A program made the translations under genes and the position numbers. 64,000 nt of DNA from Bacillales bacterium UBA4855 (GTDB lineage: Bacteria > Bacillota_I > Bacilli_A > RFN20 > CAG-826): assembly GCA_002399785.1 (NCBI GenBank), contig DHEH01000010.1, positions 68,106 to 132,105 on the forward strand, in the 5' to 3' direction. Positions 43 to 57,112 of the stretch are shown piece after piece. Below the pieces are notes generated by a model, which had not been told where the DNA came from, searched no databases, and worked only from the letters and a program-made list of their open reading frames with translations. Within the stretch, counting starts at the first letter, position 1, and each line of letters begins with the position of its first letter.

Positions 43-1005
43 ATGGCAATTTTATTGTATGGCAATCAACAAATGATGATTAAAAATCAGTTAAAAAAAC
101 TGATTAAAGAACAATTTTCAAACGAAAATGAAAGGAATGTTGTTCGTTTTGATGCTTTAGAAACTAATGTTGAAGAAGTGGTAAATGAATGTTGCCAATT
201 CAGTTTAGAATTTGCAAAAAAGATGGTTATTTTAGATAATGCACAATATTTTAGCAATTCGAGGACGAAAGCAAAAATCAATATTTCAAACAAATTCGAT
301 ATCTTATTGAATTATTTAAAAAATGAAAATCCAGATTGTTTATTAGTTATCATAGTTAATTCATCGACTATTGCTTTAAAAAATGAAATAGTTAGTTTTA
401 TTAGCAAAAATGGAAAAATAACTGAATTAAAGGATTTAACAAAAGATGATTGGCCAATTTATGTTAAAAAATATTTTATGCTTAAAAATATTGAAATAGA
501 CAATGATGCCGTCAATGAAATTGTGTTAAGATCGAACAATGATTTAAATGTATTCATTAATGAAGCTACAAAATTAATATTATATAAAAACAATAAAATA
601 ACATTAAAAGACGTAAAAACTTTAATGATGGCACCTTTAGAAGAAAATTCTTTCGAAATACTTAATAATTTGCTTTTAAACAACAAAGAAAATGCTCTTA
701 AAATATATCGTGATTTATCACTATATAATGTCGAGCCAATTTCTTTAATAGCTTTAATTTCGACTTCATTAATATTTTATGATGAAGTGTATATATTGGA
801 AAAACAAGGTCTTTCTGGAGATACTATAAGTTCAAAATTAAATGCAAATCCTTATAGAGTCAGAATGACACTAAAAACATTAAGAAATGTATCATATAAA
901 AGAATTAGAAAAGCATTAGATGATCTTTACGAACTTGATAGATCGATTAAGCACAGTGAAGTGAATCGTTTCTATAACTTCGAAACATTTTTATTAAACT
1001 TCTAG
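43..1005 (+). CDS. holA: DNA polymerase III delta subunit
   Basis: 320 aa. Position upstream of convergent rpsT matches B. subtilis holA(yqeN)-rpsT. Delta-subunit-like sequence. Confidence 0.65.
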   Translation: MAILLYGNQQMMIKNQLKKLIKEQFSNENERNVVRFDALETNVEEVVNECCQFSLEFAKKMVILDNAQYFSNSRTKAKINISNKFDILLNYLKNENPDCLLVIIVNSSTIALKNEIVSFISKNGKITELKDLTKDDWPIYVKKYFMLKNIEIDNDAVNEIVLRSNNDLNVFINEATKLILYKNNKITLKDVKTLMMAPLEENSFEILNNLLLNNKENALKIYRDLSLYNVEPISLIALISTSLIFYDEVYILEKQGLSGDTISSKLNANPYRVRMTLKTLRNVSYKRIRKALDDLYELDRSIKHSEVNRFYNFETFLLNF

Positions 1006-1012
1006 AAAACAA

Positions 1013-1040
1013 AAAACCTCCAAAAATGGAGGTTTTATAA
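1013..1040. terminator. Bidirectional rho-independent terminator (holA / rpsT convergent)
   Basis: AAAACCTCC-AAAAAT-GGAGGTTTT hairpin with an A-run on one side and a T-run on the other. Confidence 0.8.
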
Positions 1041-1057
1041 ATACCAATAAAATATAA

Positions 1058-1324
1058 TTACTTGCTTAAAGTATTAACAAGATTTTGAAGATTTGATTTT
1101 TGTCTTGCAGCTGTTGCGTGTTTTTGAATACCTTTGACAACTGATCTATCAATGACACTAAAAGCTAAAGTTAACTTCTCTTGAGCTAATTTTTGATCTT
1201 TGGCATCAACAGCGACTCTAACGGCCTTAGCAGCACTTCTTAATTTTGATTTATAAGAAATATTTCTAACTCTGGCTTTCTCGCTTGTGATAATTCTCTT
1301 CTTTTGTTGTTTAATGTTTGCCAT
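1058..1324 (-). CDS. rpsT: 30S ribosomal protein S20
   Basis: 88 aa, MANIKQQKKR...; basic with the typical S20 N-terminus. Confidence 0.9.
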   Translation of the reverse strand: MANIKQQKKRIITSEKARVRNISYKSKLRSAAKAVRVAVDAKDQKLAQEKLTLAFSVIDRSVVKGIQKHATAARQKSNLQNLVNTLSK

Positions 1325-1451
1325 AAATTCTACCTCTTTCGATACGGTTATAATAATACCATAAATAGCATATTCAATTCAAATAGAAAATATAGGCAAA
1401 AACTGTAACTTGATATCGAAAAAAGGCTATATTTGAATTATAATAAACAAA

Positions 1452-2387
1452 ATGGAAATCAAGAAACTTAAAATAGTGTATTTTGGTACACCAGACATCT
1501 CGGCCAAGGTATTAGAACATCTTATTGAAGATGGATTTAATATTGTTGGTTTAGTAACTCAAATCGATAAACCACAAGGAAGAAAAAATATTATTACGCC
1601 TACACCAACTAAAATTGTAGCAATGAAACACGGAATTAATGTTTATCAACCTGTAAAAATTAGAAACGATTTTAATTTTTTGAAAGAAATTAATCCTGAT
1701 ATAATATTAACTTTAGCATATGGTCAATTAATACCTCATGAAGTGTTGGAATTGCCAAAATTAGGCGCTTTTAATCTTCATGGTTCAATATTGCCAAACT
1801 ATAGGGGTGCAAGTCCAATTCAATATAGTTTATTGAATGGTGACACAGAAACAGGTGTTACATTGATGGAAATGGTTGATAAAATGGATGCTGGTAAAAT
1901 GTATTACGTTTCTAAAGTTGAAATATCTTTAAACGATAACTATAGTTCACTAAAAGATAAAATAAGTGATGCTGCTTATGATGCCTTCATCAACGGAATT
2001 CAAGACGTTGTCGATGGAAAAAATAAAGGAAACGAGCAAGATGAAAATCTTGCAACATTTACTGCAAAAATAAATAAAGAAGACGAAATAATCAATTTTA
2101 ATTCTGATAATATAACTCTTTTTAATAAGATTAGGGCACTTTCATATGAACCAGGAATGTATTTTGTCTTTAATAATGAAAAAATTAAAATATTAAAAAC
2201 CCATATAGTTGATAGCAACGGAAAACCTGGTGAAATAATCGAATATTCAAAAAATGGATTCATTATTGCTACCTTAAATGGCGCTTTATCAGTTGACGAA
2301 ATTCAAAAGCCCGGGAAAAAAGTTATGACATTTAAAGATTTTTATAACGGGAATCAACATTTATTTGAAATTGGACAAATAATATAA
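1452..2387 (+). CDS. fmt: Methionyl-tRNA formyltransferase
   Basis: 311 aa; formyltransferase motifs (IVYFGTPD, NLHGSILPNYRGASPIQ). Confidence 0.85.
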   Translation: MEIKKLKIVYFGTPDISAKVLEHLIEDGFNIVGLVTQIDKPQGRKNIITPTPTKIVAMKHGINVYQPVKIRNDFNFLKEINPDIILTLAYGQLIPHEVLELPKLGAFNLHGSILPNYRGASPIQYSLLNGDTETGVTLMEMVDKMDAGKMYYVSKVEISLNDNYSSLKDKISDAAYDAFINGIQDVVDGKNKGNEQDENLATFTAKINKEDEIINFNSDNITLFNKIRALSYEPGMYFVFNNEKIKILKTHIVDSNGKPGEIIEYSKNGFIIATLNGALSVDEIQKPGKKVMTFKDFYNGNQHLFEIGQII

Positions 2388-2388
2388 A

Positions 2389-4740
2389 ATGATTCAATTG
2401 AAGCTTAGTGTTCACGAAATTGTAGATTTTTTATTACGAAAAGGTGATATAGATAATCGTGTTTTCAATACTTCAAGCATGCTTGAAGGAACGAAAATTC
2501 ATAAATACTATCAATTAAGGCAAGGAAACGACTATAGAAGCGAAGTTCCTTTGTCTATTAATATTTATTTAGATAATTATGAATTTAATATATATGGGCG
2601 TGCAGATGGTATCAGCACAAGCGGAATTCCTACAATTGATGAAATAAAAACTGCAAATATCGATTTAGAAACTTTTTATTTGCAATATAACGAATGGCAT
2701 TTAGGACAAGCTGAATTTTATGCATATATGTATGCTAGACAAAATTCTTTAAATAATATTAATATTTCTTTAACATATTTAAGTCAAACAAACAAAGATA
2801 GTTTAAAAAAATATTTTTCTTATTCAATTACCGATCTAGAAAATAAAATTTTTGGATATTTAAGAAGTTATATTTCTTATAAGTCTATTTTTGAAAGAAG
2901 GCATGATACAAGAAATAAATCATTAGATAGATTATGTTTTCCTTATAAAACAATAAGAAAAGGTCAAAGTGAATTAATTGATGCAACTAAATATTCGGTT
3001 AATAATCACGAAACTTATTTTATAGAAGCAAGTACTGGAATAGGTAAAACTATTTCAACTTTATATGGCGCACTAGACTCGGTTAAAAGCAACGATATAG
3101 ACAAAATATTTTACTTAACTGCTAAAAATAGCGGTTTTGTAAACTGTTTAAAAGCTATGAATGATCTGAAAAAGAAAGAATTGAATTTTATAACTATTCA
3201 AATTTCTGCTAGAGAAAAAATGTGTTTAAATCGTAAAAAAATTGGAAAATGTAACCCTGACGATTGTCCTTATACCAGAGATTATTTTTCAAAAATTAAA
3301 GATATAATCGTGGAATCTATTGATAAATATGATATTTTTGATAATAAAAGACTCATAAGTATTGGTAAAGAGAATATGGTTTGTCCATTTGAATTCAGTT
3401 TAGATTTATCAATGTTTAGTGATGTAATTCTATGTGATTATAATTATGTATTTAGTCCAATTGCCATGTTACAAAGATACTTTGAAACTCCAGATAAGCA
3501 ATATAACATGGTTTTATTAATCGATGAAGCTCATAACCTCATTAATCGATCCAGAGATATGTATAGTGCAAATTTATCCATTAATACATTTATAAAGGCA
3601 AAACCTGATTTGGATAATATTAGACTTAAATCTTTAAAAAATAGAATTCAAAAAATTTATTCGTATATTAACGAATTAAAGGATTTTGATTTTGGCTCTG
3701 AAAACAATGTATCAGTAGAAACTTTTAACATAGATTTTATAGATCAATTAACAAAATTTGACAAAGAAATCAAAACTTACAAAAATAAACATAAAAGATT
3801 TAAAAGTGATACAGTCGATGATTTAACTCGCGAAATTTATAAATTTATCGTTATTAATGAATACTATAAAGCGAATCCAGAAAAATATAGTTTATATGTA
3901 GCAAAAACCTTTGATGACGTTATTTTAAAAACTTTTTGTCTCGATTCTAGCCAATATATTAATGATATGGTTTATAAATTTAAGGGATCTGTTTGTTTTA
4001 GCGCAACATTATCCCCTCTTTATTATTATAAAAAAATTCTTTTTGGGAGAGATAATTTTAAAGATTTAATTATTCCTTCTCCTTTTCCAAAGGATAATTT
4101 TAAAGTGTTAGTAAATAATTCTGTTTCGTTATTATATAAAGATAGAAATAAATCCATCGGAGAAATAACGAATGAAATTGATGTCTTTATTAAAGGCAAA
4201 ATGGGCAATTATATTGTTTTTTGTCCCTCATTTGAATATCTAGATATGCTAGAAAGATCTTATTTAAAATCTAATTTTAATTGTATTTTTCAAAAAAGAT
4301 ATATGGATTTTTCTGAAAAAGAAAATTTCTTAAATTCTTTTAAAGAAAATCCTGACGAAACCTTTGTTGGTTTTTGTGTCCTAGGCGGAATTTTTAGTGA
4401 AGGAATAGATTTAGTTGGTTCTAGATTAATAGGAACTGTAGTGATTGGTATAGGTTTGCCAATGCTATCTTTTGAAAATAACCTACTTAAAACATATTAC
4501 GATTCAATCGGACTTAACGGATTTGAATATGCTTACTCAAATGTTGGAGTTAATAAAGTTATGCAAGCTGTTGGACGATTAATTAGAACACCTCAAGATA
4601 AAGGCGTAGTTTTGCTTTTAGATTATCGATATAGTTATAAAAATTTTAAAGAACTTTTTGAAAATTCATGGAGCAATTATTCGATTGTTAAAAATTGTGA
4701 TGATATTCAAAATTGTTTGAAATCGTTTTATAATAATTAA
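2389..4740 (+). CDS. RecB-family PD-(D/E)xK nuclease fused to an XPD/DinG-type Fe-S helicase (superfamily 2)
   Basis: N-terminus carries nuclease motifs: H-E, GRADGI, IDEIKT, QAEFYAYMY. Helicase motif I is ASTGIGKT and DEAH box is LLIDEAHNL. Four Cys sit between motifs I and II (C-x8-C-x4-C ... VCPFE). ATG lies 1 nt after the fmt stop. Confidence 0.75.
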   Translation: MIQLKLSVHEIVDFLLRKGDIDNRVFNTSSMLEGTKIHKYYQLRQGNDYRSEVPLSINIYLDNYEFNIYGRADGISTSGIPTIDEIKTANIDLETFYLQYNEWHLGQAEFYAYMYARQNSLNNINISLTYLSQTNKDSLKKYFSYSITDLENKIFGYLRSYISYKSIFERRHDTRNKSLDRLCFPYKTIRKGQSELIDATKYSVNNHETYFIEASTGIGKTISTLYGALDSVKSNDIDKIFYLTAKNSGFVNCLKAMNDLKKKELNFITIQISAREKMCLNRKKIGKCNPDDCPYTRDYFSKIKDIIVESIDKYDIFDNKRLISIGKENMVCPFEFSLDLSMFSDVILCDYNYVFSPIAMLQRYFETPDKQYNMVLLIDEAHNLINRSRDMYSANLSINTFIKAKPDLDNIRLKSLKNRIQKIYSYINELKDFDFGSENNVSVETFNIDFIDQLTKFDKEIKTYKNKHKRFKSDTVDDLTREIYKFIVINEYYKANPEKYSLYVAKTFDDVILKTFCLDSSQYINDMVYKFKGSVCFSATLSPLYYYKKILFGRDNFKDLIIPSPFPKDNFKVLVNNSVSLLYKDRNKSIGEITNEIDVFIKGKMGNYIVFCPSFEYLDMLERSYLKSNFNCIFQKRYMDFSEKENFLNSFKENPDETFVGFCVLGGIFSEGIDLVGSRLIGTVVIGIGLPMLSFENNLLKTYYDSIGLNGFEYAYSNVGVNKVMQAVGRLIRTPQDKGVVLLLDYRYSYKNFKELFENSWSNYSIVKNCDDIQNCLKSFYNN

Positions 4741-4779
4741 CGAAAAATAATTAATTAACTGATATAATGCATTAGAAAT

Positions 4780-6591
4780 ATGAATTACGATAAAACAAAG
4801 ATTAGAAATTTTAGCATTATTGCTCATATAGACCACGGAAAATCAACATTAGCTGATCGTATTTTAGAATTAACAAATACAATTGAAAAAAGAAATATTA
4901 GTCAACAAATGTTAGATGATAATCCTATTGAAAAAGAAAGAGGAATTACAATTAAGTTGAATGCTGTTACTGTTCAATATAAAGCTGATGATGGTAACAC
5001 ATATATTTTTAATCTCATCGATACTCCAGGGCATGTCGATTTTACTTATGAAGTTAGTAGATCACTAGCTGCATGTGAGGGTGCTCTTTTAGTTGTCGAC
5101 GCCACTCAAGGCGTTCAAGCTCAAACTTTAGCCAATACTTACTTAGCTGTAGATAATGATTTATATATTTTACCTGTAATTAATAAAATAGATCTACCAA
5201 GTGCAATGGTGGAGATGACAAAACGTGAAATAAGTGAAAAAATTGGATTAGATGGGGAAAATGCAATTGCTGTCAGTGCCAAAACCGGAGTAAATATCAA
5301 AGAAATATTAGAACGTGTTGTTAGAGATATTCCTGCACCTAGTGGAGATAACAACAATAAACTTCAAGCTCTTATATTCGATAGTTTTTACGATTCGTAT
5401 CGTGGTGTAGTTATTTTAATACGAATTAAAGAGGGTCACATTAAATTAGGAGATTCAATTCATTTAATGCGTCATAATAAGGATTACCAAGTGACTGAGT
5501 TAGGCATTAGAACACCTAAAGAAATCAGTAAAAACGAGTTAGATTGTGGAGAAGTTGGTTACTTATGTGCTCAAATAAAAGATATTCACGATGTTCATGT
5601 TGGTGACACTATAACATTGACCGATAATCCAGCAGAAAAGCCATTACCAGGTTATAAAAAAATACAATCTATGGTTTATTGTGGAATTTATCCATCGGAT
5701 TCTAGAAAATATGGTGAATTAAAAGATGCATTAGAGAAATTATGTCTTAATGATGCAAGTTTGAAGTATGAAACTGAAACAAGTAAAGCGTTAGGCTTTG
5801 GATTTAGATGCGGATTTCTTGGACTATTACACATGGATGTAATTCAAGAAAGACTTGAAAAAGAATACGATTTAGATCTTATTTTGACTGCTCCTAGTGT
5901 TGTTTATAAGGTTTATTTAACCGACGGAACAATAATTAATCTTGAAAATCCTGGAGACTTGCCTGATTTAACAACAATTAACCACATTGAAGAGCCATAT
6001 GTTACTGCACAAATTATGACTCCAAAAGAGTTTGTTGGTCCAATCATGAATCTTTGCCAAGAAAGAAGAGGAATATATAAAGATTTGCAATATTTCGATG
6101 AAACTCGTATGAATTTGATATACGAGATGCCTTTAAGCGAAATAATTTATAATTTTTTTGATAAATTAAAAAGTTATACCAAGGGTTACGCTTCTTTCGA
6201 TTATGAAATTTCTGAATATAAAAAATCCGATTTAGCTAAAATGGATATTCTATTAAATGGTGACGTTATTGATGCATTATGCAGCATTGTTTATAAACCA
6301 TTTGCATATAATCGTGGTTTAAAACTTGTATCAAAATTAAAAGATGTTATACCAAGACAACAATTTGAAATACCTGTTCAAGCCGCAATAAATGGTAAAA
6401 TAATCGCTAGAGCCGATATTAAAGCTGTTAGAAAAGATGTTTTAGCAAAATGTTATGGCGGAGACATAACTCGTAAGAAAAAATTATTAGAAAAACAAAA
6501 AGAAGGTAAAAAGAGGATGAAATCTATCGGATCTGTTGATGTTCCTCAAGAGGCCTTTATGAGTTTATTGTCAATTGATGATGATAAATAA
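4780..6591 (+). CDS. lepA: Elongation factor 4 (LepA)
   Basis: 603 aa; GTPase motifs AHIDHGKST and DTPGHVDF; LepA C-terminal domain. Confidence 0.95.
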
Positions 6592-6719
6592 AATTTTTCA
6601 AGTTAAGTAGTGGTGTAGACTAGTTAAAATTTAGTATTTTATAAGTAATAAATTAGTAATTTTGACTTTAAAATAATAAAAAAATAAATATAATATTAAT
6701 AGATAGGAAGACAAAATAT

Positions 6720-8141
6720 ATGAGTAATGATCTTGCAATTAAATTTAGCGATGAAACATACGCCACATACCAAGAAGTTGTAAATAATATGAAAACCCCA
6801 CTTATTGATAATATTTGGGCAAATATCGTTGAACATCGTTCACATTTTAATAAACAACTTAGTTTAAAACACTTAACGGGGGCAAATTTTTCCGTTTGTT
6901 ATACTCCTTACGTAACTAATAAAATAAACGAAGTTGAAAGAAAATTATTAAAATTAACCACTTCTTATTTTCAACTTTCAGCAAAAAATACAGACAAAGA
7001 ATACCAAAAATTAAGTTATATTGATATTTTGAGATCATTAGCTAATAAATATAAGTTAGCTGTTGATAATTCTGTTTTAAATCAAATTGTTACTAACCAA
7101 TTGAGTGTATTACCTCCTAATTTCATGATTTTAAATCGATATTTTAGATGTTTAAAAGAAATTGAAAACAATCCTTTAAGTGAATTAAACGATTCTGTTT
7201 TAGGTAATTTTTATAGTTTCTTAATGGGAACAGAAGAATTAAATGAATTTTATCGAACAACTGAAATCAGTGATATGGGAAGTAGAGTACTTGTTGGAAA
7301 AGTATATTTAGGTATTCCATCAACAGCCATAGGAAATGCAATGGATGATTTATTTAAGTTTATTAACTATTCAACATCAAGTTTATTTGTTAAGGCTGCT
7401 GCGAGTTTATATTACATGTATTATATAAAGCCTTTCGAAACATATAGTGAAGATTTGTCCATTTTATTATTTAAAAAAATAATTGGTTTTAATGATATTG
7501 GATCTGTTGCTTCTACTATTAATTTTGAATCTTTATTATTAAAAAGGGAAGAATTCGAAAAAAGTTTAATTGATTCTCAAAAAACTTTTGATTTAACTTA
7601 CTTTATTTTATATGTTGCTAATAAGACTTCTTCTTTAATTGATGAAGCGTTAAATAACGTTAATCAGGCAAGAAATAGCGTTATCAGTCAAGAAATGTAT
7701 CAAAAAGAAGAAGAAAAACCAACTATTGATCCAGATTTTAGTTATAAAGAAGAATCGAAAAAAGAAGAAACACTTTCACCAAAAGAGGATTCTTTACAAG
7801 AAAATCTAACCCAATATAAAACTCCAGATACAACTTCTTCTGTTAGTTATACTCAAAATATTGCAATTAGCAATGTTCCAAGCGGATTAAGTGAAGAAGA
7901 CGCTAATCGTCTAGAAAAACATTTAATCGAAATGAATCCTGCATTAAGCAGAGCACAAGCGCACTTTTATGCGCGTCACTGTACACTTGGAATGTCTTAT
8001 ACTATTTCACAATTTAAGAAAAGTTTAGGATGTGCCTACGAAACTGCAAGAAGTAGTATGGACCATCTTGTGTTTTTAGGGTATTATAAAAAAGATTCTT
8101 TGAGAAATAAATTTATTTATACACCAGTAAAGAAAAATTAA
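6720..8141 (+). CDS. Fic-fold-like protein with degenerate active-site motif and C-terminal winged-helix domain
   Basis: 473 aa. ...AAASLYYMYYIKPFETYSEDLSI aligns to the Fic core (hhhhIHPFxDGNGR) with the catalytic residues replaced. Low-complexity linker. C-terminal wHTH-like segment (ISQFKKSLGCAYETARSSMDHLVFLGYYKK). Confidence 0.4.
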   Translation: MSNDLAIKFSDETYATYQEVVNNMKTPLIDNIWANIVEHRSHFNKQLSLKHLTGANFSVCYTPYVTNKINEVERKLLKLTTSYFQLSAKNTDKEYQKLSYIDILRSLANKYKLAVDNSVLNQIVTNQLSVLPPNFMILNRYFRCLKEIENNPLSELNDSVLGNFYSFLMGTEELNEFYRTTEISDMGSRVLVGKVYLGIPSTAIGNAMDDLFKFINYSTSSLFVKAAASLYYMYYIKPFETYSEDLSILLFKKIIGFNDIGSVASTINFESLLLKREEFEKSLIDSQKTFDLTYFILYVANKTSSLIDEALNNVNQARNSVISQEMYQKEEEKPTIDPDFSYKEESKKEETLSPKEDSLQENLTQYKTPDTTSSVSYTQNIAISNVPSGLSEEDANRLEKHLIEMNPALSRAQAHFYARHCTLGMSYTISQFKKSLGCAYETARSSMDHLVFLGYYKKDSLRNKFIYTPVKKN

Positions 8142-8156
8142 TAAGGAGCTATAGTT

Positions 8157-8429
8157 ATGAATTTAGATATTGTATTTGCATCAAGTTTTCCAAGTTGGGC
8201 CATCTTTTTAGTAGTTATTTTGCTTGCAGCCGTAATTGGTGTCATTGCATTCGCTATTCACTTAATTATTAAAAAAAGAAAGCCTGAAGAAAAAAAAGAA
8301 AGTGAAGAAAAAATAGCTCAAGATAATGTTGATCGTTTTGTCGAAGATGTTTCTGATGAAGAAACCAAAAAAGAATTCGAAAAATACGTTAAAGAGCACG
8401 AGGAAGATGAAAAAAAAGACAATAAATAG
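8157..8429 (+). CDS. Small membrane protein (one TM helix, charged Lys/Glu-rich C-terminal tail)
   Basis: 90 aa; strong RBS AAGGAG 8 nt upstream; hydrophobic helix followed by KKRKPEEKKESEEK... Confidence 0.5.
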   Translation: MNLDIVFASSFPSWAIFLVVILLAAVIGVIAFAIHLIIKKRKPEEKKESEEKIAQDNVDRFVEDVSDEETKKEFEKYVKEHEEDEKKDNK

Positions 8430-9504
8430 TTTATATATTCATATTCCTTTTTGCTCGTCAATTTGTAGTTATTGCGCATTTTATAAAATTTTAGATAAAA
8501 TAACGACTGAAAATGCATATATAGATCAATTAATAGAAGATATTGAAAAAACTAAAAATAATTTCAATCCTTTTAAAACAATTTATATTGGTGGTGGAAC
8601 TCCAAGTTCTTTGAGTGTCGAAAACTTAAATAAGATTTTATTTGCACTCAATACATTAATTGATAAAGATTGTGAATTCACTATCGAAGCTAATCCTGAA
8701 TCAATTACTGAAGAAAAATTAATTTTGTTTAGAAAATATGGTATTAATCGAATTTCTATCGGATTAGAATCTTTTGATTCAAAATATTTAAAACTAATGA
8801 ACAGAGATTATAAAATTAATTATTTTAATTTGATAAAAACTATAAAAAAGCATTTTGATAACATAAACGTTGATCTAATTTATGGATTACCTAACGAAAC
8901 TGAAGATGATTTAAACGATGAGATTGCTAATTTTTTAAAATTAGATGTGCCTCATATTTCTTTATATTCACTAGAGATTCATAAAGGAACGTCCTTATAT
9001 ATTAAAGGATATAAAGAAGAAAACGGAGACACTTTAAGAAATCAATATGATTTAATTCTTTCTAAACTTAGAAATAATGGTTACGAAAGATATGAAGTTA
9101 GTAATTTTGCAAAACATGGTTACGAAAGCCAACATAATCTTAATTATTGGCACGACAATGAATATTTATCACTAGGAGTTGGTGGTAGCGGCTATATAAA
9201 TAATATTAGATATAAAATTAATCCTCCAATTAATGATTATTTATTAGGTAAACGCAATATTGTTAAAGAAACTGTTACTATAAGCGACAATAAAGAATAT
9301 TACTTACTTACCAATCTTCGATTAAAAGATGGTTTTTCCCTTAAAGAATATGAAAAAAAATTCAATTCAAGCATTCTTTTTGATAAAAAAATCGAGATAG
9401 AACAATATATTAATGTAGGGTTATTAAAAATTGAAGATAATCGACTTAAAGTTACTGATAATGGTATGTATATTTTAGATTCAATTTTAGTAGATTTGAT
9501 TTAA
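8407..9504 (+). CDS. hemW: Radical SAM heme chaperone HemW (HemN-like)
   Basis: CxxxCxxC (CSSICSYC) radical SAM motif. Start placed at the internal ATG behind GAGGAAG; the track ORF begins further upstream. Position lepA-hemN-hrcA as in B. subtilis. Confidence 0.8.
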   Translation: MKKKTINSLYIHIPFCSSICSYCAFYKILDKITTENAYIDQLIEDIEKTKNNFNPFKTIYIGGGTPSSLSVENLNKILFALNTLIDKDCEFTIEANPESITEEKLILFRKYGINRISIGLESFDSKYLKLMNRDYKINYFNLIKTIKKHFDNINVDLIYGLPNETEDDLNDEIANFLKLDVPHISLYSLEIHKGTSLYIKGYKEENGDTLRNQYDLILSKLRNNGYERYEVSNFAKHGYESQHNLNYWHDNEYLSLGVGGSGYINNIRYKINPPINDYLLGKRNIVKETVTISDNKEYYLLTNLRLKDGFSLKEYEKKFNSSILFDKKIEIEQYINVGLLKIEDNRLKVTDNGMYILDSILVDLI

Positions 9505-9577
9505 AGTAATAAATTTAATAATTTTTTAAATAAAATATTATCGATTGATTCGATATAATAATCACCTATTTAAAAAA

Positions 9578-9604
9578 TTAGCACTTTTATCTTGACAGTG
9601 CTAA
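9578..9604. promoter_or_regulatory. CIRCE operator (HrcA binding site) overlapping the -35 element
   Basis: TTAGCACTT-N9-CAGTGCTAA versus consensus TTAGCACTC-N9-GAGTGCTAA. TTGACA at 9592-9597 and TATAAT at 9614-9619. Confidence 0.85.
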
Positions 9605-9623
9605 TTATGGTTATATAATATAT

Positions 9624-9650
9624 TTAGCATTTGAAGTAAAGAGTGCTAGA
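9624..9650. promoter_or_regulatory. Second, degenerate CIRCE-like inverted repeat
   Basis: TTAGCATTT-N8/9-GAGTGCTAG immediately upstream of the hrcA RBS. Confidence 0.55.
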
Positions 9651-9662
9651 AAGGTGGTTAAT

Positions 9663-10680
9663 ATGTCTTTAAAAAGAAGTGAAATTATCCTCAAGTATAT
9701 TGTTGAAGATTATATCAAAACAAATGAGCCTGTCGGTAGTGAAAACCTAATTAAGGTACATAAATTACCATATTCTAGTGCAACCATCAGAAATGATATG
9801 GTTAATCTTGAAAAAAATGGCTTGATAGAGAAAACACATACGAGTAGCGGAAGAATTCCTTCACTTGAAGGTTATCGATACTATATTCGTAAGTTAAGAA
9901 GTGAAAAAGTTGATAAGTCTATACGTTATGAAGTAGATAAATTGTTTGATTCAAGCAAGTCGATTGAAGACTTGATGAGTGAAAGTTGTTTGCTTCTGTC
10001 TCATATGACGAATTTAGCTTGCTGCTTCTTAGCGCCATCAATTATCGAAGAAAGAGTAGCGAAGATTGAAGTTATCCCCCTTAACGAAAATCATTTCAGC
10101 TTCATCTTTCTTACCGATAAGGGCTTCCTAGAAAATAAAACGTTCGTTATTAATAAAAACGAATCAATTAAAGATCTAGTCAAAGCAATGAATATGTTTA
10201 ATAACGAATTAGTCGGGACTCATTTGTATGAATTGTTTCAAAAAATTAAAGATGTTAGAGGTAAATTAGGAAAATATAACAATTATTATCCTTATATGAA
10301 TCAATTATTAGCTTCTGTTATAAAAGATTTTGTAATTAGAAGAAATGGTCAATTCTATGGAAAAAATAATTTACTTCAACAACCAGAATTTAAAGACAAC
10401 ATCGAAGATATTAAAAAGATTGTGGATTTATTATCTAATCCATATCAAATAGGGGAAATGTTTAAAGGTTCAAGTGAGATTGCTATCTCAATTGGCGCAA
10501 ACAATATTCCAGATATTACGGTAATTGCTAAAGATATTAAATCTCCAGTTACTGGTGATGATCTAGGAAGAATTGCTATCGTTGGGCCAACAAGAATGGA
10601 TTACGATAAGGTACTTGAATATCTAAATTATGTTAGTGATATGTTGGTCAGTCACTTAATGGACTTAAAGGAGAATGATT

Positions 10681-10691
<11 letters not shown>
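9663..10691 (+). CDS. hrcA: Heat-inducible transcription repressor HrcA
   Basis: HrcA-like sequence preceded by CIRCE. ATG at 9663 follows RBS AAGGTGG; the track ORF starts at a GTG 9 nt upstream. Confidence 0.9.
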
Positions 10692-13205
<2,514 letters not shown>

Positions 13206-18249: not shown

Positions 18250-18741
18250 ATGAAGCTACAAGCAAAAGCGGAAAAACTTATTAGAAGTATTTGTCAAGAA
18301 TACAATAACGAACCTACACCTTTAATGATGATTTTATCCAAAATTCAAAAAGAATACGGATATATTCCTCTTGAAGTTCAAGAAATTATTAGTGAAGAAA
18401 TTCACATACCAGTGAGTGATATTTATGGTGTTGTTACATTTTACTCATTCTTTTCTTTAAAACCAAAAGGAAAATATGTAATTGGCGTTTGCTTAGGTAC
18501 TGCCTGTTACGTTAAAGGAAGCCAAACAATTATTGATAAATTTAGCGAAATATTAAAGATAAAAGCTGGAGAAACTACTCCTGATGGTTTATTTTCACTC
18601 GATGCTTTAAGATGTATCGGCGCTTGCGGTATTGCTCCTGCTATTAGTATTAATGGAAAAGTTTACCCAAAGGTTACAGCTAATAAAGTTATGAGCATCA
18701 TTGATGAATACAAAAAATTAGTAGCGGAGGATGCACAATAA
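18250..18741 (+). CDS. NuoE-like 2Fe-2S thioredoxin-fold subunit of NADH-dependent [FeFe] hydrogenase (HydC/HndA)
   Basis: 163 aa; Cys pattern C..C...C...C of the NuoE/HoxE family. Confidence 0.8.
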   Translation: MKLQAKAEKLIRSICQEYNNEPTPLMMILSKIQKEYGYIPLEVQEIISEEIHIPVSDIYGVVTFYSFFSLKPKGKYVIGVCLGTACYVKGSQTIIDKFSEILKIKAGETTPDGLFSLDALRCIGACGIAPAISINGKVYPKVTANKVMSIIDEYKKLVAEDAQ

Positions 18742-20618
18742 TGAGTACAACTATCAAAACACCTGAAGAATTAAGAATGAAAACGGAGCATTGCGCTTCA
18801 TGTTTAAACAAAAAATTTCATTGTGAAAACGGAAAAAGAGCTATCGTTGTTTGTGGTGGAACTGGATGTATGTCATTCGATTCTCAAGAAATTAAAGAAA
18901 GATTAAGCAAAATTATTAAAGAAAAAGGCTTAGAAGAAAAAATAAGCGTAAATTTTGTTGAATGCTTTGGTTTTTGTTCGCAAGGTCCTTTTGTAAAGAT
19001 TTTCCCTGAAGATACTTTATATCGTATGGTTCAAGTATCTGATGTCGATAAAATTATCGAACAAGATATTATTGGTGGAAAAGTTGTTGATGAACTTTTA
19101 TACATTGATCCAGTAACTAAAGAACACGTTCAAAAACAAGACGATATCAATTTTTATAAAAAACAAATGAGAATTGCTCTTCATGGTTGCGGAGTTATCA
19201 ATCCTGAAGATATTAACGAGGCTTTAGGTTATCAAGGTTTAGAAGCTTTATTAAAAGTTTTAACAATAATGAAACCTCAAGATGTCATTGATGAAATTTT
19301 GGCGAGCGGATTGAGAGGAAGAGGCGGCGGCGGATTCCCTGCTGGTAGAAAATGGCAATTTGCTCACGACCAAAAGAATGATAATAAATATGTTGTTTGT
19401 AATGGTTATGAAGGAGATCCAGGTGCTTTCATGGATAGATCAATTCTTGAAGGAAACCCACTCGATGTTATTGAAGGTATGATGATTGCAGGATATGCTA
19501 TCGGTGCTAAAAATGGTTATTTCTACGTTAGAGCCGAATATCCAATAGCTGTTAAAAGACTTCGAATTGCAATAAAAGAAATGGAAGACCTTGGCTTACT
19601 AGGTGATAACATCTTAGGAACCAATTTCTCATTTAGAGCTCATATAAGATTAGGAGCAGGTGCTTTCGTTTGTGGCGAAGAAACTGCATTATTAAATTCA
19701 ATTGAAGGTAAACGTGGTATGCCACGTCCAAGACCTCCATTTCCAGCCGTTAAAGGATTATGGGGTAGACCAACCATTATTAATAACGTAGAAACTCTAG
19801 CAAATGTACCTCATATCATTAGAGAAGGAAGTAAAAAATTTGCTAGCATTGGTACTGAAAAATCTAAAGGAACAAAAGTTTTTGCTTTAAGTGGAAAAGT
19901 TAATAATGTTGGCTTAGTCGAAGTTCCAATGGGAACAACATTAAGAGAATTAATTTTTGATATCGGTGGAGGAATTCCAAACAATAAAGCCTTTAAAGCT
20001 ATTCAAACTGGTGGCCCATCCGGCGGCTGTTTAACTATGGCTGATTTAAATACACCAATTGATTACGATAACTTAATTGCTGCTGGTTCTATGATGGGAT
20101 CAGGCGGAGCTATCGTTATGGATGAAGATAACTGTATGGTTGATGTCGCAAAATTCTATATGGAATTTATTTGTGATGAATCATGCGGAAAATGTTCTCC
20201 ATGCAGAATCAGTACAAGAAGAATGCTTGAAATGTTAACTGATATTACCGAAGGAAGAGGAACCGAAGATACTTTATACCAACTTCAATATTTAGCTGAA
20301 GTTGTTAAGGGTGGCTCTTTATGTGGATTAGGTAAAACTTCAGCTAACCCAATTCTTTCAACCATGAAAAAATTTCCTTAAGAATACCATCAACACGTTG
20401 TTGATAAAAAATGTGCAGCACATGTTTGTAAGAATTTAATTTCTTTCCATATTGATGCTTATAAATGTAAAAAATGCTCGCTCTGTGCAAGAAATTGTCC
20501 AGTTAATGCTATTACCGGTGAAATAGGTAAGGTTCCTTACGTTATTGATTCCGATAAATGTATTAAGTGTAGATTATGCTTCAGTAACTGCAAATTTGGC
20601 GCAGTCATAAAAGATTAA
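18741..20618 (+). pseudogene. NuoF-like flavoprotein subunit of [FeFe] hydrogenase (HydB/HndC), interrupted by an in-frame TAA at 20379-20381
   Basis: NuoF core (GLRGRGGGGFPAG FMN/NAD site, CGKCSPCR). After the TAA the same frame continues with no ATG or RBS for 78 codons. These encode two CxxCxxCxxxCP [4Fe-4S] ferredoxin motifs, the normal C-terminus of HydB. Confidence 0.7.
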
Positions 20619-20631
20619 GGAGGAAACAAAA

Positions 20632-22401
20632 AATGGATAAAATTAATATTAAAATCGAGGGTCTCCCTTATCAAGTAGATGCCGGTTTAACAATTCTTTA
20701 AGCAGCAAAACAATGTGGGTACGATATTCCTTCTCTATGTTCTTATAAAAAAGGTGAGTGTTCATTAGCTTCGTGCCGTGTTTGCCTTGTTGAAGTTAAA
20801 GGTGCTAGAAGTTTAGTTGCTTCTTGTGTTTATCCAGTTAACGAAGGCATGGAAATTATGATTTCTTCTCCAAAAGCAATTGCCGCAAGAAGAACATCTG
20901 TTGAATTATTATTGAGTAATCACAACAAAAATTGTCAACAATGTATTAAAAACGACGAATGTGAATTACTTTATGCTGCTAAGCAAGTTGGTGCACGCGA
21001 AGGAATGTTTGTGGGTTCAAAATCAGAATCCTTTAAAGATGAAATAGCTCCTGGAATTGTAAGAGATACATCAAAATGTATTTTATGCGGACGTTGTGTT
21101 GTTAGATGCAAACAAGCCCACGGAATTTCAATTTTAGGTTTTGAAAAAAGAGGATTTAAAACAATTGTTGGTCCTGCCGGAAATCTTAGTTTTGCAAATT
21201 CACCATGTTTACAATGTGGTCAATGTGTTCTTGTTTGCCCAACTGGTGCTTTAGAAGAACATTCTGAAATTAGTAAAGTCGATCAAGCTTTTAAAAATGG
21301 AAAATATGTCATTGTTCAAACTGCTCCAGCAGTTAGAGCTGCCATTGCTGAAGAATTTGGTGCTAAAATTGGAACTGTTGCCACTGGGAAAATGGTGGCA
21401 GCTCTTCATAGATTAGGTTTTTATAGAGTTTTTGACACCAATTTTGGTGCTGATTTAACCATTATAGAAGAGGCTAACGAACTTCTTAACAGAATTAAAG
21501 GAGAAGAAGCTTTACCTCAAATAACTTCTTGCTCTCCAGGTTGGATTAATTATTGTGAATTCTTTTATCCTCAATTATTACCATATGTTTCAAGTTGCAA
21601 ATCGCCACATGAAATGATGGGAGCTATTATAAAATCATATTTTGCTAAAAAACATAATATTGATCCAAAAGATATATTTGTTGTTTCGATTATGCCATGT
21701 ACAGCGAAAAAATACGAAAAACAAAGACCTCAAAATTCAGTTGATGGACTTCAAGATGTCGATGCAGTCTTAACTACACGTGAATTAGGTCGTTTAATTA
21801 AAAGAAGTGGTATCGTTTGGAATAAATTAAAAGATGAAGAATTCGATCAACATTTACTTGGAGAATATTCAGGTGCTGGCGCAATTTTCGGTGTTACAGG
21901 CGGAGTTATGGAAGCTGCTTTTAGAACTGCTTATTTTGCTTTAGAAGGTAAAGAATATGAAAAAATCAACTTTACTGAAGTAAGAGGTTTAAAAGGTGTT
22001 AGAGAAGCAACTGTTCATATGGGTGGTATGGATGTCAAAGTTGCTATGGCAAGTGGTATGAGTTATGCTAAACCATTGCTTTATCAAATTGATACCGGAA
22101 CATCACCATATACCTTTATCGAAATTATGTTTTGTCCTGGTGGATGTGTTAACGGTGGAAGTCAACCATTCGTTAAAACTGTTTTCTTACCAAATGAAGA
22201 CGACGATATCTTAGAAACTTATGTCCAAAGAGAGCGAATGTCTTATATAGTGAAGACGAAAGACAAGTTATACGTCAATCACACAATAATCCTGATATAC
22301 AAAAATTATATAAAGAGTTCCTTGGTGAGCCATGTGGCGAAAAAGCTCACAAATTACTTCATACAACTTTTGTTAAAGACAGGCAAAGATACAAAGAATA
22401 A
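20632..22401 (+). pseudogene. hydA: [FeFe] hydrogenase catalytic subunit HydA with in-frame TAA at 20698-20700 and a frameshift near 22229-22234
   Basis: RBS AAGGAGG then MDKINIKIEGLPYQVDAGLTIL-TAA-AAKQCGYDIPSLC, where conserved TILEAA is expected. H-cluster motifs are intact (TSCSPGW, MPCTAKK, CPGGCVNGG). The conserved tail RANVLYSEDE...NPDIQKLYKEFLGEP...KAHKLLH reads in the +2 frame after an (AG)3 tract. Confidence 0.7.
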
Positions 22402-22403
22402 AT

Positions 22404-22441
22404 TAATAAATAGAGGGAAATTTAACCCTCTATTTATTTAA
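22404..22441 (+). terminator. Rho-independent terminator after hydA
   Basis: AATAAATAGAGGG-AAATTTAA-CCCTCTATTTATTT. Confidence 0.75.
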
Positions 22442-28755: not shown

Positions 28756-30614
28756 TGGATATTAAACAATTAACTGAAGATATATTAAAACAAGTAAATA
28801 TTGTAGACATAATTTCTCATTACACCCAAGTTCAAAAAGCAGGAAGAAATTACACATGTCTATGTCCTTTTCATGATGATAAGAAATTGGGGAATTTTTA
28901 CATAAATCCTGACAAACAAATTTTTAAATGTTTTTCTTGCGGAAAAGGTGGAAACGCGATAACTTTCGTTCAATATAGAGAAAATATTTCTTTTATAGAA
29001 GCCTTAAGAAAGGTTTGTGACTTATCGGGCATTAAAGACGACAGATTAACTTCAAACGTTAAAAGAGTCGAAATTCCAACTGAAATTAAAAATATCTATG
29101 ATTGTTTGTCGAATATCAATTCTTTTTATATGACCAGCTTATATCAAAATATTAACGGAAGAAAAGCCTTAGAATATCTAACTCAACGAGGTCTAACTGA
29201 AGAAATCATTAAAAATTTTAATATTGGTTATTCACAAAGTGATGGCAAAAATGTCGTTAAATATTTAAATGATAAAAATTATAGTTTGAAAACAATAGCC
29301 GAAACAGGCATTGTTCGAATAGACGAAACACCATTGAAAGATTTAAATGCAGGTAGAATCACATTTGGAATCACCAACAAAGATAATAAAATTGTTGGTT
29401 TTAGTGCTCGTATTTTTGGTGATATTAAAAGCGATGCTAAATATATAAACACTAAGGAAACTAAACTTTTTAATAAATCCGATATACTATACAACTACTA
29501 TTCTGCCTTAAACGAATCAAGAAGAGTCGGTTATGTATATGTTTTAGAAGGTTTTATGGATGTTATCGCTTGTTATAGAGTAGGTATCAAAAGTGCAGTC
29601 GGTTTGATGGGAACAGCTTTTACAAAACAACAATTGCAAATGCTTAGATTCATGAGATGCGAAATTCGCTTATGTTTAGATTTAGATACTCCTGGGCAAG
29701 ATAATATGTCAAAAATTATTGAAGTGTTAGATGAAAAAGGAATCAAATATAGATTAGTCAATAACAATTCAGGTTTTCATGGAAAAGACAGCGACGAGAT
29801 ATTAAAAAATGATGGCGAAAAGGGTTTATTATCTTTCTTAGATAATTTAATTAGCAAAGGCGAATGGCTTATAAATTATTACGCAAAATCTTTTGATTTA
29901 AGCAGTTTAGATGGAAGAAAAAAGATGTTAAAAGCCTTTATACCAGTTATTTCACAAACTAACAGCCGATTAGATAGAGAAGATTACATTAATAGAATTT
30001 CTAAATTGACGAATTTTAGTATCAAAACAATCCTTGACATGGTAAATAACATGCAAACAAATATCGAAAAAAACGATAATGAAGATTTTGCAAAATGGTA
30101 TAACTCAAATAAATTTGAAAGCAAGAAATTAGATAGATTGCAATTTGCAGAAAGACAAATGATGAGATATATTCTTGAGAATAAGGAAGCTTATGATCAA
30201 TACACAGAGAAGTTGGGATATTTTACTAATAAAGATTATAGACAAATAATTGATGCAATTGATGAATATGTAAACACAGATGTCATCAACCAAAGCAACT
30301 ACTCTTTAACAAATATTATCACATCATTAACATCCAACGAAAATTTAGAACAAAAAACGAAAGAAAAAATAATCGATGATATCACTACGGTAGCTTTAGA
30401 TAAATCGCGGTATTGCCCTCCATATAACGAGAAAAGTTTCGTAAATCTTGTTGAAACAATCAATAACGAAAGAGAACTTAAGAGAAGCAAAGAAGCTTAT
30501 GAGAACTCAATAATTAACCTAAATCCTGAAGAAAAAAATAAACAAACAGTCAATTTTCTAGAATCAATCAAAGAAAATCTAGAGAGAGACAAAATTAAAA
30601 AAGGAGGCAAATGA
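28755..30614 (+). CDS. dnaG: DNA primase
   Basis: Zinc-binding CxxH...CxxC N-terminus, TOPRIM domain (EGFMD), before sigA. Confidence 0.9.
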
Positions 30615-31873
30615 TGGAAAAAGTTAAAAATAAGTGTATTTATAGTAGTAATCAAGTAAATAACTCATCCAAGGAACTTGAAAGCGTAATCAATTCATTA
30701 GATCTAACTGAAAACAATAAAACAAATTTATTAAGTTCATTAATAAACATCGAAGGAAACATAAAGAAAACAAAAACAATAAAATTAACAGAATTAGATG
30801 TTTTATTTTCTAAATGCGGAGTTAATGATAATGATGCAGATGTTTTATTAGAATATCTTACTAATAATGGTTTTATTTGTAATGACGATTCTGGAAATAA
30901 TAATATGTACGATGACGATTCTCAATTTACGCATATGGAAATCGATGATGACGATGACGAAGACGAAACACTAATAGATCCCTACGTTGATGAAACATTT
31001 CCTAAAATTGACAAAGATGTCAAAAATACTAATTCAATTAAGTCTTACCTAAATAATATTTCTTCATATGATTTATTATCAAAAGAAGAAGAAATAGAAT
31101 TAGCAAACAAAATTAAATTAGGTGACGAAAAAGCTAAACAAGAATTATCTGAACATAACTTAAGACTTGTTGTAAGTCTTGCTAAAAATTACATCGGTAG
31201 AGGACTTTCTTTACAAGACTTAATTCAAGAAGGCAATGCTGGTTTGCTTAAAGCAGTAGAAAAGTTCGACATCACCAAGAATTGTCGATTCTCAACTTAT
31301 GCAACATGGCGGATAAATCAATCGCTTTCAGAGGCCGTAAAATCAAAAGGGCACACAATTCATTTACCATCATACATTCTTAAAGCAGTTTCTAAAATAA
31401 ACAAAACAGCAAACGAATTAACTTTAAAATTAAACCACAAACCAACCTATACAGAGATTAGTGAAGCATTAAATTGGGAATTTTCTCCCGAAAAAATAGA
31501 AAGATTCCTGTGGTACGCAACATCGACATCAATAAGATCTACTGATGAAAAAAGAAGTGATAGCGAAAAAAGCGAATCATTAATTGAAGCAATACCCGAT
31601 AATAGTGATTCAATTGAGGATTATCTATCAAATACAGCAAATCACGAAAACGTGAATAAATTACTTAAAGTTCTTAATGAAAGAGAAAAAATTATTATAA
31701 CTGAATATTTCGGTCTAGATGATGACGAAAGCAAAACTCTTGAACAAATAGGGCATGAATTAGGCCTTACAAGAGAAAGAGTTAGACAAATTAAATTTCT
31801 TGCAATTAAAAAAATGTTTGATTCTACCGAAAAAAACAAATTAACAAATTTACATAATCAAATGGAGGATTAA
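30611..31873 (+). CDS. Divergent sigma-70 family paralog (regions 1.2-4 present, altered DNA-contact residues)
   Basis: 420 aa. Regions 2-4 recognisable ([38 protein letters not shown]). Acidic N-terminal insert. Overlaps the dnaG stop (ATGA). Confidence 0.7.
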
Positions 31874-57071: not shown

Positions 57072-57112
57072 ATTTAACCTCCTTTATTTACTATTTTTAT
57101 ACTATTTATTTA

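Follow-up and report, generated by a model that had tools for sequence, protein, structure and literature searches.

A predicted EndoDinG-family nuclease-helicase in the fmt-lepA gene block of an uncultured low-GC gut Bacilli lineage

The window analysed here, a stretch of 64,000 nucleotides (64 kb) from Bacillales bacterium UBA4855, carries between fmt and lepA a gene for a protein of 783 amino acids, whose limits, strand and ATG start are exactly those of the preliminary description of this DNA (Table 1). The fmt stop codon ends at position 2387 and the ATG lies at 2389, leaving a gap of 1 nt. The local gene order is holA, rpsT (on the minus strand), fmt, the nuclease-helicase gene, lepA, orf473, hemW, hrcA, grpE, dnaK, dnaJ, rsmE and mtaB, which matches from holA to mtaB the Bacillus-type synteny recognised earlier; at the corresponding position B. 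subtilis presumably has gpr-spoIIP. Every identified neighbour in the window is a housekeeping gene, and none is a cas or defence gene. No CRISPR-like array or array-like repeats were found in the 64 kb, and neither a tRNA scan nor an Rfam scan of it returned a hit that could act as a taxonomic marker.

Table 1. Coordinates of the nuclease-helicase gene, its domains and motifs, and the flanking genes (positions in the window).
Feature	Position	Strand	Evidence or remark
fmt (methionyl-tRNA formyltransferase)	1452..2387	+	TIGR00460, 292.7 bits (cutoff 201.5)
Predicted EndoDinG-family nuclease-helicase gene	2389..4740	+	783 aa, stop codon included in the coordinates, ATG start
N-terminal PD-(D/E)xK (RecB/Cas4-type) endonuclease domain, residues 1 to about 180	2389..2928	+	Matches the N-terminal domain of 9KQH
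Walker A / helicase motif I, A214-S-T-G-I-G-K220-T221	3028..3051	+	Invariant residues in alignment A1
Fe-S domain, four Cys, C279-x8-C288-x4-C293 ... C332 (VCPFE)	3223..3384	+	Cys conservation, Pfam DEAD_2
DEAH box / helicase motif II, D379-E-A-H382	3523..3534	+	Invariant residues
Arch domain, approximate limits, residues about 398-530	3580..3978	+	Helical insertion in the AF2 model
Motor domain 2 (MD2, Helicase_C_2), residues 601-763, with P691 (P motif), F712 (ratchet) and R747	4189..4677	+	Pfam PF13307
lepA	4780..6591	+	Pfam GTP_EFTU and LepA_C; 39 nt downstream of the nuclease-helicase gene

The ATG is not preceded by a Shine-Dalgarno-like sequence, no plus-strand terminator was found within positions 900-6800 (the interval from fmt to lepA included), and promoter-like sites are not enriched (40, against 38.6 +/- 5.8 in shuffled sequence). 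Operon structure was therefore read from spacing only, and the gene and lepA probably share a transcription unit. About 14 related MAGs keep fmt, the nuclease-helicase gene, lepA, orf473 and hemW in synteny. In the nearest clade, for which 14 loci were compared, the gene lies at most 5 nt from fmt or overlaps it in 8 loci and lies 24-48 nt from it in 4. The translational coupling to fmt that had been proposed is plausible at this locus, which has the 1-nt gap and neither a Shine-Dalgarno sequence nor a terminator, but it is not conserved in the clade. The nearest gut Bacilli/Mollicutes-like clade alone keeps the core of the block, from fmt to lepA, and adjacency to lepA holds in most of its loci. 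In a comparison of 82 EndoDinG loci, no neighbour recurs outside this clade beyond a divergent LysR-type regulator (7 loci).

A fusion of this kind has already been described. EndoDinG is a named subgroup of the DinG-like helicases (Cheng 2025, PMC11981726), of which the DinG of Finegoldia magna (FmaDinG) has been characterised by crystal structure (PDB 9KQH) and biochemistry (Li et al. 2026, PMC13650095). FmaDinG acts as a Mn2+-preferred ssDNA endonuclease and as a 5'-3' helicase, and it digests into duplex DNA in an ATP-dependent manner, an activity that is abolished in the ATPase-dead mutant D378A. The substitutions H40A, E54A, R73A, D75A, E88A and K90A abolish nuclease activity, the C289A/C294A double mutant is unstable, and a "gate" loop formed by residues 18-28 rearranges (PMC13650095).

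In a phmmer comparison, the protein encoded here matches chain A of 9KQH (9kqh_A) over residues 3-761 with 34% identity (E=1.5e-133), a similarity that, judged on sequence, is far above chance level, and its N-terminal 180 residues alone match the N-terminal domain of 9KQH with E=2e-18. The best Foldseek match of the full-length AF2 model (pLDDT 91.3) is again 9kqh_A (E=2.9e-73, TM 0.79/0.83 over 769 columns). The same holds for the model of the nuclease domain (pLDDT 91.8; E=3.7e-15, rmsd 2.7 A), the next matches being Cas4 4ic1, AddA 4ceh, RecE, EXO5 and MGME1. The AlphaFold check suggested in the preliminary description has thus yielded models that superpose on 9KQH, and the stretch of lowest confidence in both of them, residues 21-30, falls on the gate loop of FmaDinG. 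A Pfam search of residues 1-180 gave no nuclease family; Pfam has no model for such a divergent domain, and its silence is not counter-evidence to a nuclease fold, a question that was decided by the match to 9KQH and by the fold search of the N-terminal domain. Residues 1-182 are free of Cys, the first one standing in RLCFPY at residue ~183, which, together with the fold search, agrees with the reading of this region as a RecB/Cas4-like nuclease that lacks the Cas4 Cys cluster. On the helicase side, DEAD_2 (residues 274-398) and Helicase_C_2 (E=2.6e-35) both exceed their Pfam cutoffs, and HBB gives a sub-threshold Pfam match at residues 489-584.

Conservation was assessed over 34 diverse homologues of 31-52% identity (alignment A1). 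The nuclease residues H38, E52, D73, E85 and K87, the substrate residue R71 and the Q107/Y111 motif are invariant, which indicates purifying selection on catalysis. The motifs picked out in the preliminary description (H-E, GRADGI, IDEIKT and QAEFY) are accordingly all found at family-invariant positions, namely H38/E52, G70-R71-A-D73-G74-I, I-D-E85-I-K87-T and Q107-A-E-F-Y111. Also invariant are T216, G217, G219 and K220 of Walker A, D379, E380 and H382 of the DEAH box, and the Fe-S cysteines C288, C293 and C332, while C279 is present in 33 of the 34; the four-Cys Fe-S helicase of XPD/DinG type described earlier is thereby borne out, as it is by the two Pfam matches. In the residue map against FmaDinG, H40, E54, D75, E88, K90 and R73 correspond to identical H38, E52, D73, E85, K87 and R71, D378 corresponds to D379, and C289 and C294 to C288 and C293, such that every catalytic, ATPase and Fe-S residue validated by mutagenesis is identical in the two proteins. 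The DNA-contact residues K246, K277, R586, P691, F712 and R747 are retained. R10 of FmaDinG is replaced by H9, His being the second most common state at this position (15 of 34 family members), and F478, which stacks on DNA in the Arch domain, is replaced by R481 (Arg in 6 of 34). As H9 and R481 deviate from the DNA contacts of FmaDinG, substrate handling could differ in detail between the two enzymes.

We therefore regard the gene product, on these comparisons, as an orthologue-grade EndoDinG within the bacterial DinG/XPD-like SF2 helicases. It possesses a PD-(D/E)xK domain with H, E, D, E and the catalytic K (E-x-K), an XPD-like core, full-length homology and, by its sequence, a canonical CCCC Fe-S domain rather than a pFeS, the cluster itself being predicted. 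It shares with FmaDinG the order of the domains (PD-(D/E)xK, then MD1 with the Fe-S and Arch insertions, then MD2) and has a similar length (783 versus 748 aa). It differs in its host, an uncultured Bacilli/Mollicutes-like lineage of the gut with low GC (about 25-30%), which has Candidatus Onthovivens as its nearest named relatives and is absent from the orders listed in PMC13650095 and PMC11981726, and in its location within a housekeeping block, from fmt to lepA, that is specific to its clade.

The family turned out to have a much wider distribution than published work gives it, the existing survey having sampled one genome per order. A scan of genome contigs with the single protein gave no relative, and a rerun with alignment A1 gave 560 confirmed loci. 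The family comprises 563 clusters at 50% identity and is found in at least 560 GTDB species representatives, with carriers that include Listeria, Enterococcus, Clostridium, Erysipelotrichaceae, Acholeplasmataceae and Anaeroplasmataceae. EndoDinG proteins are annotated solely as "ATP-dependent DNA helicase", the nuclease having been missed by genome annotation. The view that the fusion is architecturally unusual and might be a new enzyme is not supported, as it belongs to EndoDinG, a subgroup with a crystallised member (PDB 9KQH) and this many carriers. The preliminary description had itself allowed that the fusion might prove already ordinary and well characterised, and this is largely the case, given that it bears a name and has many Firmicutes carriers.

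The only clearly conjugative-type elements among the carriers are Legionella plasmids, whose homologues have only 28-29% identity. On two of these plasmids the gene is flanked by genes for Ku, UdgX, a GIY-YIG nuclease, dinB, a Y-family polymerase, umuD and SRAP, which suggests a repair role for the family; the gene for the GIY-YIG nuclease overlaps the 3' end of the EndoDinG gene there. Several other matches labelled as plasmids are replicons of megabase scale whose gene content is chromosomal, and those in the phage collection come from unannotated records that bear the names of Listeria or Enterococcus phages; neither group was counted as evidence of mobility.

Comparison with better known systems places the protein more closely. 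XPD (Rad3), e.g. that of Thermoplasma acidophilum (PDB 4A15, 9P55), has the same four-domain Fe-S core with four Cys, Arch and DEAH, and is the best structural match outside EndoDinG (TMt 0.77-0.78, E about 1e-31 to 1e-33; sequence E 2.5e-27). It works in NER/TFIIH, a setting for which nothing speaks here, and has no nuclease domain, whereas 180 residues of nuclease are added here. Membership of XPD/Rad3 was rejected on the score against TIGR00604 (158.9 bits, cutoff 246.95) and on the extra domain, the core fold being XPD-like nonetheless. With AddAB, AdnAB, RecBCD and Dna2 the protein would have in common a translocating motor that feeds ssDNA to a RecB-type PD-(D/E)xK nuclease, and Foldseek relates its nuclease domain structurally to those of AddA, AdnA/B and RecB. 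The coupled nuclease-helicase logic of Dna2 and AddAB, invoked in the preliminary description as that of Dna2/AddB, is supported by the homology, the conserved residues and the fold. The protein falls outside these groups, in which the motor is of SF1 rather than of the SF2 XPD type; here the Fe-S cluster would belong to the helicase instead of the nuclease domain, and there is a single polypeptide with no evident Chi-recognition module. Among stand-alone proteins, Cas4 (SSO0001, PDB 4IC1; Foldseek E about 1e-7) comes structurally nearest to the nuclease domain; it lacks an equivalent of E52 (PMC13650095). Cas4 profiles match the N-terminus weakly (TIGR00372, E=3.1e-5; PADLOC Cas4, E=8.2e-6), and membership of Cas4 was rejected on the TIGR00372 score (23.9 bits, cutoff 65), the lack of a Cys cluster, the fusion to a helicase and the lack of cas context.

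From homology at 34% identity we infer for this protein the same activities as for FmaDinG. The [4Fe-4S] XPD-type motor, made up of MD1, Fe-S, Arch and MD2, would load on a 5' single-stranded tail or a fork and translocate 5'-3' with ATP, unwinding the duplex. The unwound DNA would be fed into the N-terminal PD-(D/E)xK domain, a putative Mn2+-preferring, single-strand-specific endonuclease, and the two activities would jointly digest progressively into duplex DNA. In the gut Bacilli/Mollicutes-like lineage the enzyme may serve in damage, fork or end processing, its gene being presumably co-transcribed with fmt and probably with lepA. Overall, we give a probability of roughly 0.88 to the reading that the protein is an EndoDinG with an FmaDinG-like mechanism and a vertically inherited core enzyme of genome maintenance, not a mobile defence gene.

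The main alternative is that the protein degrades invading DNA instead of maintaining the host genome, either as a CasDinG-like component of a type IV CRISPR system or as a stand-alone anti-phage or anti-plasmid helicase-nuclease. Nuclease-helicase fusions are common in defence systems, a role against mobile elements was left open by the authors of the FmaDinG study (PMC13650095), the N-terminus weakly matches Cas4 models (E about 1e-5), and the PADLOC model PDLC01439 (typeIV_DinG, "CAS-IV-A; associated") matches residues 177-771 with 344.7 bits. This last match, which leaves some chance of a defence-related ancestry for the helicase clade, shows no more than that the helicase cores are related; TIGR03117, the curated model for Csf4, gives 41.5 bits against a cutoff of 400, and archaeal XPD (TMt 0.77) is a closer structural match than CasDinG (TMt 0.65), whose pFeS is degenerate and devoid of Cys (PMC13650095) where four family-conserved Cys stand here. 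The surroundings also argue against defence, since the array-free 64 kb offers housekeeping neighbours and no cas or defence gene, the gene is fixed in a housekeeping block conserved throughout the clade, the 82 loci compared show no recurrent defence neighbour, and on plasmids it is repair and translesion-synthesis islands that house EndoDinG. We consider a defence function, which the preliminary description had kept as an option, improbable; the housekeeping operon of the clade and the Legionella islands together favour genome maintenance over phage defence, although the housekeeping surroundings speak for repair in an indirect way only.

Two further readings concern the domains themselves. 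The N-terminal domain might be a degenerate, non-catalytic DNA-binding module, as in pExoDinG, leaving a helicase-only protein; the failure of Pfam to assign residues 1-180 to a nuclease family and the change of the substrate contact R10 to H9 could be taken in this sense. Yet His is common at this position in the family, the five catalytic residues, R71 and the Q..Y motif are all present and invariant, and the domain model superposes on the active domain of FmaDinG, which makes such degeneration very improbable. The other reading is that of a canonical DinG mistaken for something else, be it the Firmicute ExoDinG with its DnaQ-type exonuclease or DinG/YoaA of the E. coli type. NCBIfam models for DinG, YoaA and dinG_rel do give significant E-values, but on the C-terminal helicase part only and with scores far below the curated cutoffs (YoaA 97.1 versus 680 bits, PRK08074 83.8 versus 789, TIGR01407 78 versus 547.7, PRK11747 59.8 versus 598). 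ExoDinG of the S. aureus/B. subtilis type (PDB 9II8, 8ZEF) likewise couples an N-terminal nuclease to a 5'-3' DinG motor; its nuclease is a DEDD, DnaQ-like 3'-5' exonuclease, whereas no DnaQ/DEDD domain is present here and the N-terminus has the PD-(D/E)xK fold. In Foldseek, the full-length model scores much lower against S. aureus ExoDinG (TM 0.52/0.46) and E. coli DinG (0.56/0.62) than against 9KQH. The profile scores, the structural comparison and the N-terminal fold effectively refute a canonical DinG.

As a discovery the gene has little significance, its architecture having been named, crystallised and assayed before. Of modest value are the breadth of the family, the nuclease overlooked in annotation, and the genomic contexts, which suggest tractable organisms (Listeria, Enterococcus) for work on the in vivo role of EndoDinG. 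One might speculate, at rather long odds, that in this reduced-genome, low-GC gut clade EndoDinG is a fixed core gene of the fmt/lepA operon that serves as the principal nuclease-helicase for DNA ends and forks, replacing resection of the AddAB/RecBCD type, and that the Legionella islands reflect a general role in double-strand-break or damage processing. Were this true, the Ku, UdgX, GIY-YIG and translesion-synthesis islands on the Legionella plasmids would point to a role in processing double-strand breaks or damage across the whole family.

The open reading frame is confirmed in the window. Its 783-aa product, in a search of PDB sequences, matches chain 9kqh_A over nearly its full length (residues 3-761, E=1.5e-133), and its first 180 aa, searched by themselves, align with residues 4-181 of that chain (E=2e-18). 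According to Li et al. 2026 (PMC13650095), 9KQH is the DinG of Finegoldia magna (FmaDinG) and the first member of the EndoDinG subgroup to be characterised; proteins of this subgroup are DinG/XPD-like helicases that carry a canonical Fe-S domain and, at the N-terminus, a PD-(D/E)xK nuclease domain. They were named EndoDinG in the Cheng 2025 review (PMC11981726). Li et al. describe FmaDinG as an ssDNA-specific endonuclease that prefers Mn2+, with a 5'-3' helicase, able to digest into duplex DNA with ATP; digestion is abolished in the ATPase mutant D378A and the nuclease by H40A, E54A, R73A, D75A, E88A and K90A. With 34% identity to this characterised enzyme, the window gene is, judged from its sequence, a new EndoDinG member with predicted activities, in a lineage absent from the accessible literature. 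The fusion, which the preliminary description had considered an unusual architecture, is that of a family which already has a name (PMC11981726), has recently been characterised (PMC13650095) and is widespread.

Every sequence feature listed in that description is present: the 783-aa frame, the RecB/Cas4-like motifs, the lack of a Cas4 Cys cluster (the first Cys lies at about residue 183) and the four-Cys Fe-S helicase; the kind of enzyme proposed, a nuclease joined to an XPD/DinG helicase, was also right, as the 9KQH match, residue mapping and fold show. Of the checks it proposed, profile searches recovered both helicase domains, while Pfam gave no match in residues 1-180, and AlphaFold modelling bore out both parts. 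The alignment-based AlphaFold2 model (pLDDT 91.3, pTM 0.88) superposes best on 9kqh_A among solved structures (E=2.9e-73, TM 0.79/0.83, 769 columns), followed by archaeal XPD (TMt ~0.77), with E. coli DinG, S. aureus ExoDinG and CasDinG at lower scores. Residues 1-176, modelled on their own (pLDDT 91.8), are confirmed to have a RecB/Cas4-type PD-(D/E)xK fold, since the best match of this model is the FmaDinG nuclease domain (E=3.7e-15, TMq 0.83, rmsd 2.7 A), followed by Cas4 SSO0001, AddA, RecE, ACE1, EXO5, MGME1, AdnAB, lambda exonuclease and RecB. The sole low-confidence stretch of this domain, residues 21-30, coincides with the FmaDinG 'gate' segment, proposed to open for DNA entry (PMC13650095).

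All validated FmaDinG residues were mapped onto the window protein by HMMER alignment, and conservation was scored among 34 diverse full-length homologues (31-52% identity). FmaDinG H40, E54, D75, E88 and K90 correspond to H38, E52, D73, E85 and K87, D378 to D379, and the Fe-S ligands C289 and C294 to C288 and C293, all invariant, as is C332; R73 corresponds to R71 (kept in 31 of 34), and C279 is present in 33. The DNA-contact residues K249, K280, R578, P677, F698 and R733 are found as K246, K277, R586, P691, F712 and R747. Two positions differ: the contact R10 is H9 in the window protein (R in 18 homologues, H in 15), and F478, which stacks in the Arch domain, is replaced by R481 (F in 19, R in 6, Y in 4).

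The survey of its distribution also speaks against an unusual fusion. The nuclease domain alone retrieved 1452 clusters at E<=1e-3 and 563 at E<=1e-10 (50% identity representatives); nearly all complete matches are 750-820 aa long, a length that implies fusion to the helicase. When one genome per GTDB species was scanned with the guidance of a profile, at least 560 loci were confirmed. Carriers among the matches listed include Clostridia, Tissierellia, Bacilli (Listeria, Enterococcus, Companilactobacillus, Heyndrickxia), Erysipelotrichaceae, Acholeplasmataceae, Anaeroplasmataceae, Latescibacterota, Verrucomicrobia, Desulfobacteria and Chloroflexi. The published lineage list is shorter because that survey took one KEGG genome per bacterial order (PMC11981726). 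Apart from one 91% match, the nearest relatives are Candidatus Onthovivens and "Mollicutes bacterium" MAGs (50-53% identity), labelled only "ATP-dependent DNA helicase" at NCBI. Matching records of the phage collection ('Listeria phage LM 4-11-1', 'Enterococcus phage Efs 1-1-1') are unannotated, and 'plasmid' records of 0.5-2.9 Mb carry full-length EndoDinG among genes of chromosomal type; such records appear to be chromids or DNA of the host chromosome, not mobile elements.

Features of the window protein, the window and related loci
Feature	Location	Particulars
EndoDinG gene	window 2389-4740 (+)	783 aa
Nuclease motifs	H38, E52; G70-R71-A-D73-G74-I; E85-I-K87; Q107...Y111	GRADGI, IDEIKT, QAEFY
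Walker A	K220	ASTGIGKT
Cys cluster	C279-x8-C288-x4-C293...C332	VCPFE
DEAH box	residues 379-382	
DEAD_2	residues 274-398	Pfam, above threshold
Helicase_C_2	residues 601-763	Pfam, above threshold
orf473	window 6720-8141 (+)	473 aa
Small ORF	window 8157-8429 (+)	90 aa
hemW (listed)	window 8326-9504 (+)	
[FeFe]-hydrogenase cluster	window 18250-22441 (+)	three genes, NADH-dependent
Sigma-70-family genes	window 30611-31873 (+), 31877-33313 (+)	420 aa, 478 aa
dinB, xseA	window 55842-58539 (-)	Pol IV, exonuclease VII large subunit
Hydrogenase cluster, clade locus L001	8529-12680	same kind
L. lytica pLlyPCM2298_2 (L086)	3148-11870	UdgX - Ku - EndoDinG - GIY-YIG nuclease - dinB - Y-family polymerase - umuD
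L. longbeachae pB1445CHC_73K (L084)	5980-9988	EndoDinG - GIY-YIG nuclease - dinB - Y-family polymerase - umuD - SRAP

The gene lies in the order holA, rpsT(-), fmt, EndoDinG, lepA, orf473, hemW, hrcA, grpE, dnaK, dnaJ, rsmE, mtaB, the Bacillus-type arrangement invoked in the preliminary description, at a position presumably held in B. subtilis by gpr-spoIIP. The fmt assignment is firm (TIGR00460, 292.7 bits, above cutoff), and its stop codon ends at 2387, one nucleotide before the ATG, as described earlier. This adjacency is kept across the nearest clade (L001-L016), and the wider block fmt-EndoDinG-lepA-orf473-hemW in most of these loci. Translational coupling to fmt is plausible for the window, but tight spacing is frequent rather than defining: of 14 clade loci, 8 have a gap of at most 5 nt or overlapping genes, and four have a gap of 24-48 nt. 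Near more distant EndoDinG loci fmt and lepA are absent, and no recurrent common neighbour was found.

Searches of Pfam, NCBIfam and PDB sequences gave no match to orf473, yet its position is kept in about 11 related MAG loci (25-41% identity); this protein of the housekeeping block is clade-specific and uncharacterised. The product of the small ORF that follows is hydrophobic at its N-terminus, has a tail rich in Lys and Glu and matches a holin family below threshold. This ORF overlaps the listed hemW start by ~100 nt; hemW probably begins downstream of that listed start, close to the 'SLYIHIPFC' radical-SAM motif. The hydrogenase cluster lies ~14 kb downstream of EndoDinG, and in L001 its counterpart interrupts the block directly, with EndoDinG on one side and lepA on the other, so the block has been rearranged within the clade. 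Two sigma-70-family genes in tandem, each with regions 1.2, 2, 3 and 4, directly follow dnaG, where one rpoD is usual. Other repair genes, dinB and xseA, adjoin the xerD-like recombinase gene ~50 kb away and are unlinked to EndoDinG.

That the nuclease domain is inactive is very improbable, being contradicted by the invariance of its catalytic residues. Scores against curated models of ExoDinG, canonical DinG, YoaA, Csf4/CasDinG, Cas4 and rad3 all fall far below the cutoffs, and these cutoffs together with the fold make a canonical DinG or ExoDinG scarcely conceivable. A defence or CasDinG-like enzyme, the former an option left by the preliminary description, is favoured only by the PADLOC profile "typeIV_DinG, CAS-IV-A associated" (345 bits on the helicase core); we consider it unlikely, given the four conserved Cys, the fold ranking and the context. 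All identified genes of the 64 kb are housekeeping, among them a DEAD-box helicase, nfo, ispG, a type II topoisomerase pair, yqeH, tkt, aspS and hisS, and no cas genes, defence genes or CRISPR-like array were found there.

Full-length EndoDinG with intact catalytic residues is also carried by Legionella plasmids, within DNA-damage islands (SRAP being an SOS-response-associated peptidase), a context that offers a hint to its role in vivo. On both plasmids the GIY-YIG nuclease gene overlaps the preceding EndoDinG by 8 nt, and its product is a possible functional partner; no mention of this link was found in the accessible text of PMC13650095 and PMC11981726. Because EndoDinG sits in a housekeeping block in the clade and in DNA-damage islands on Legionella plasmids, we favour genome maintenance over phage defence. 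It is conceivable, though rather improbable, that in this reduced-genome clade EndoDinG carries out most of the processing of DNA ends or forks.
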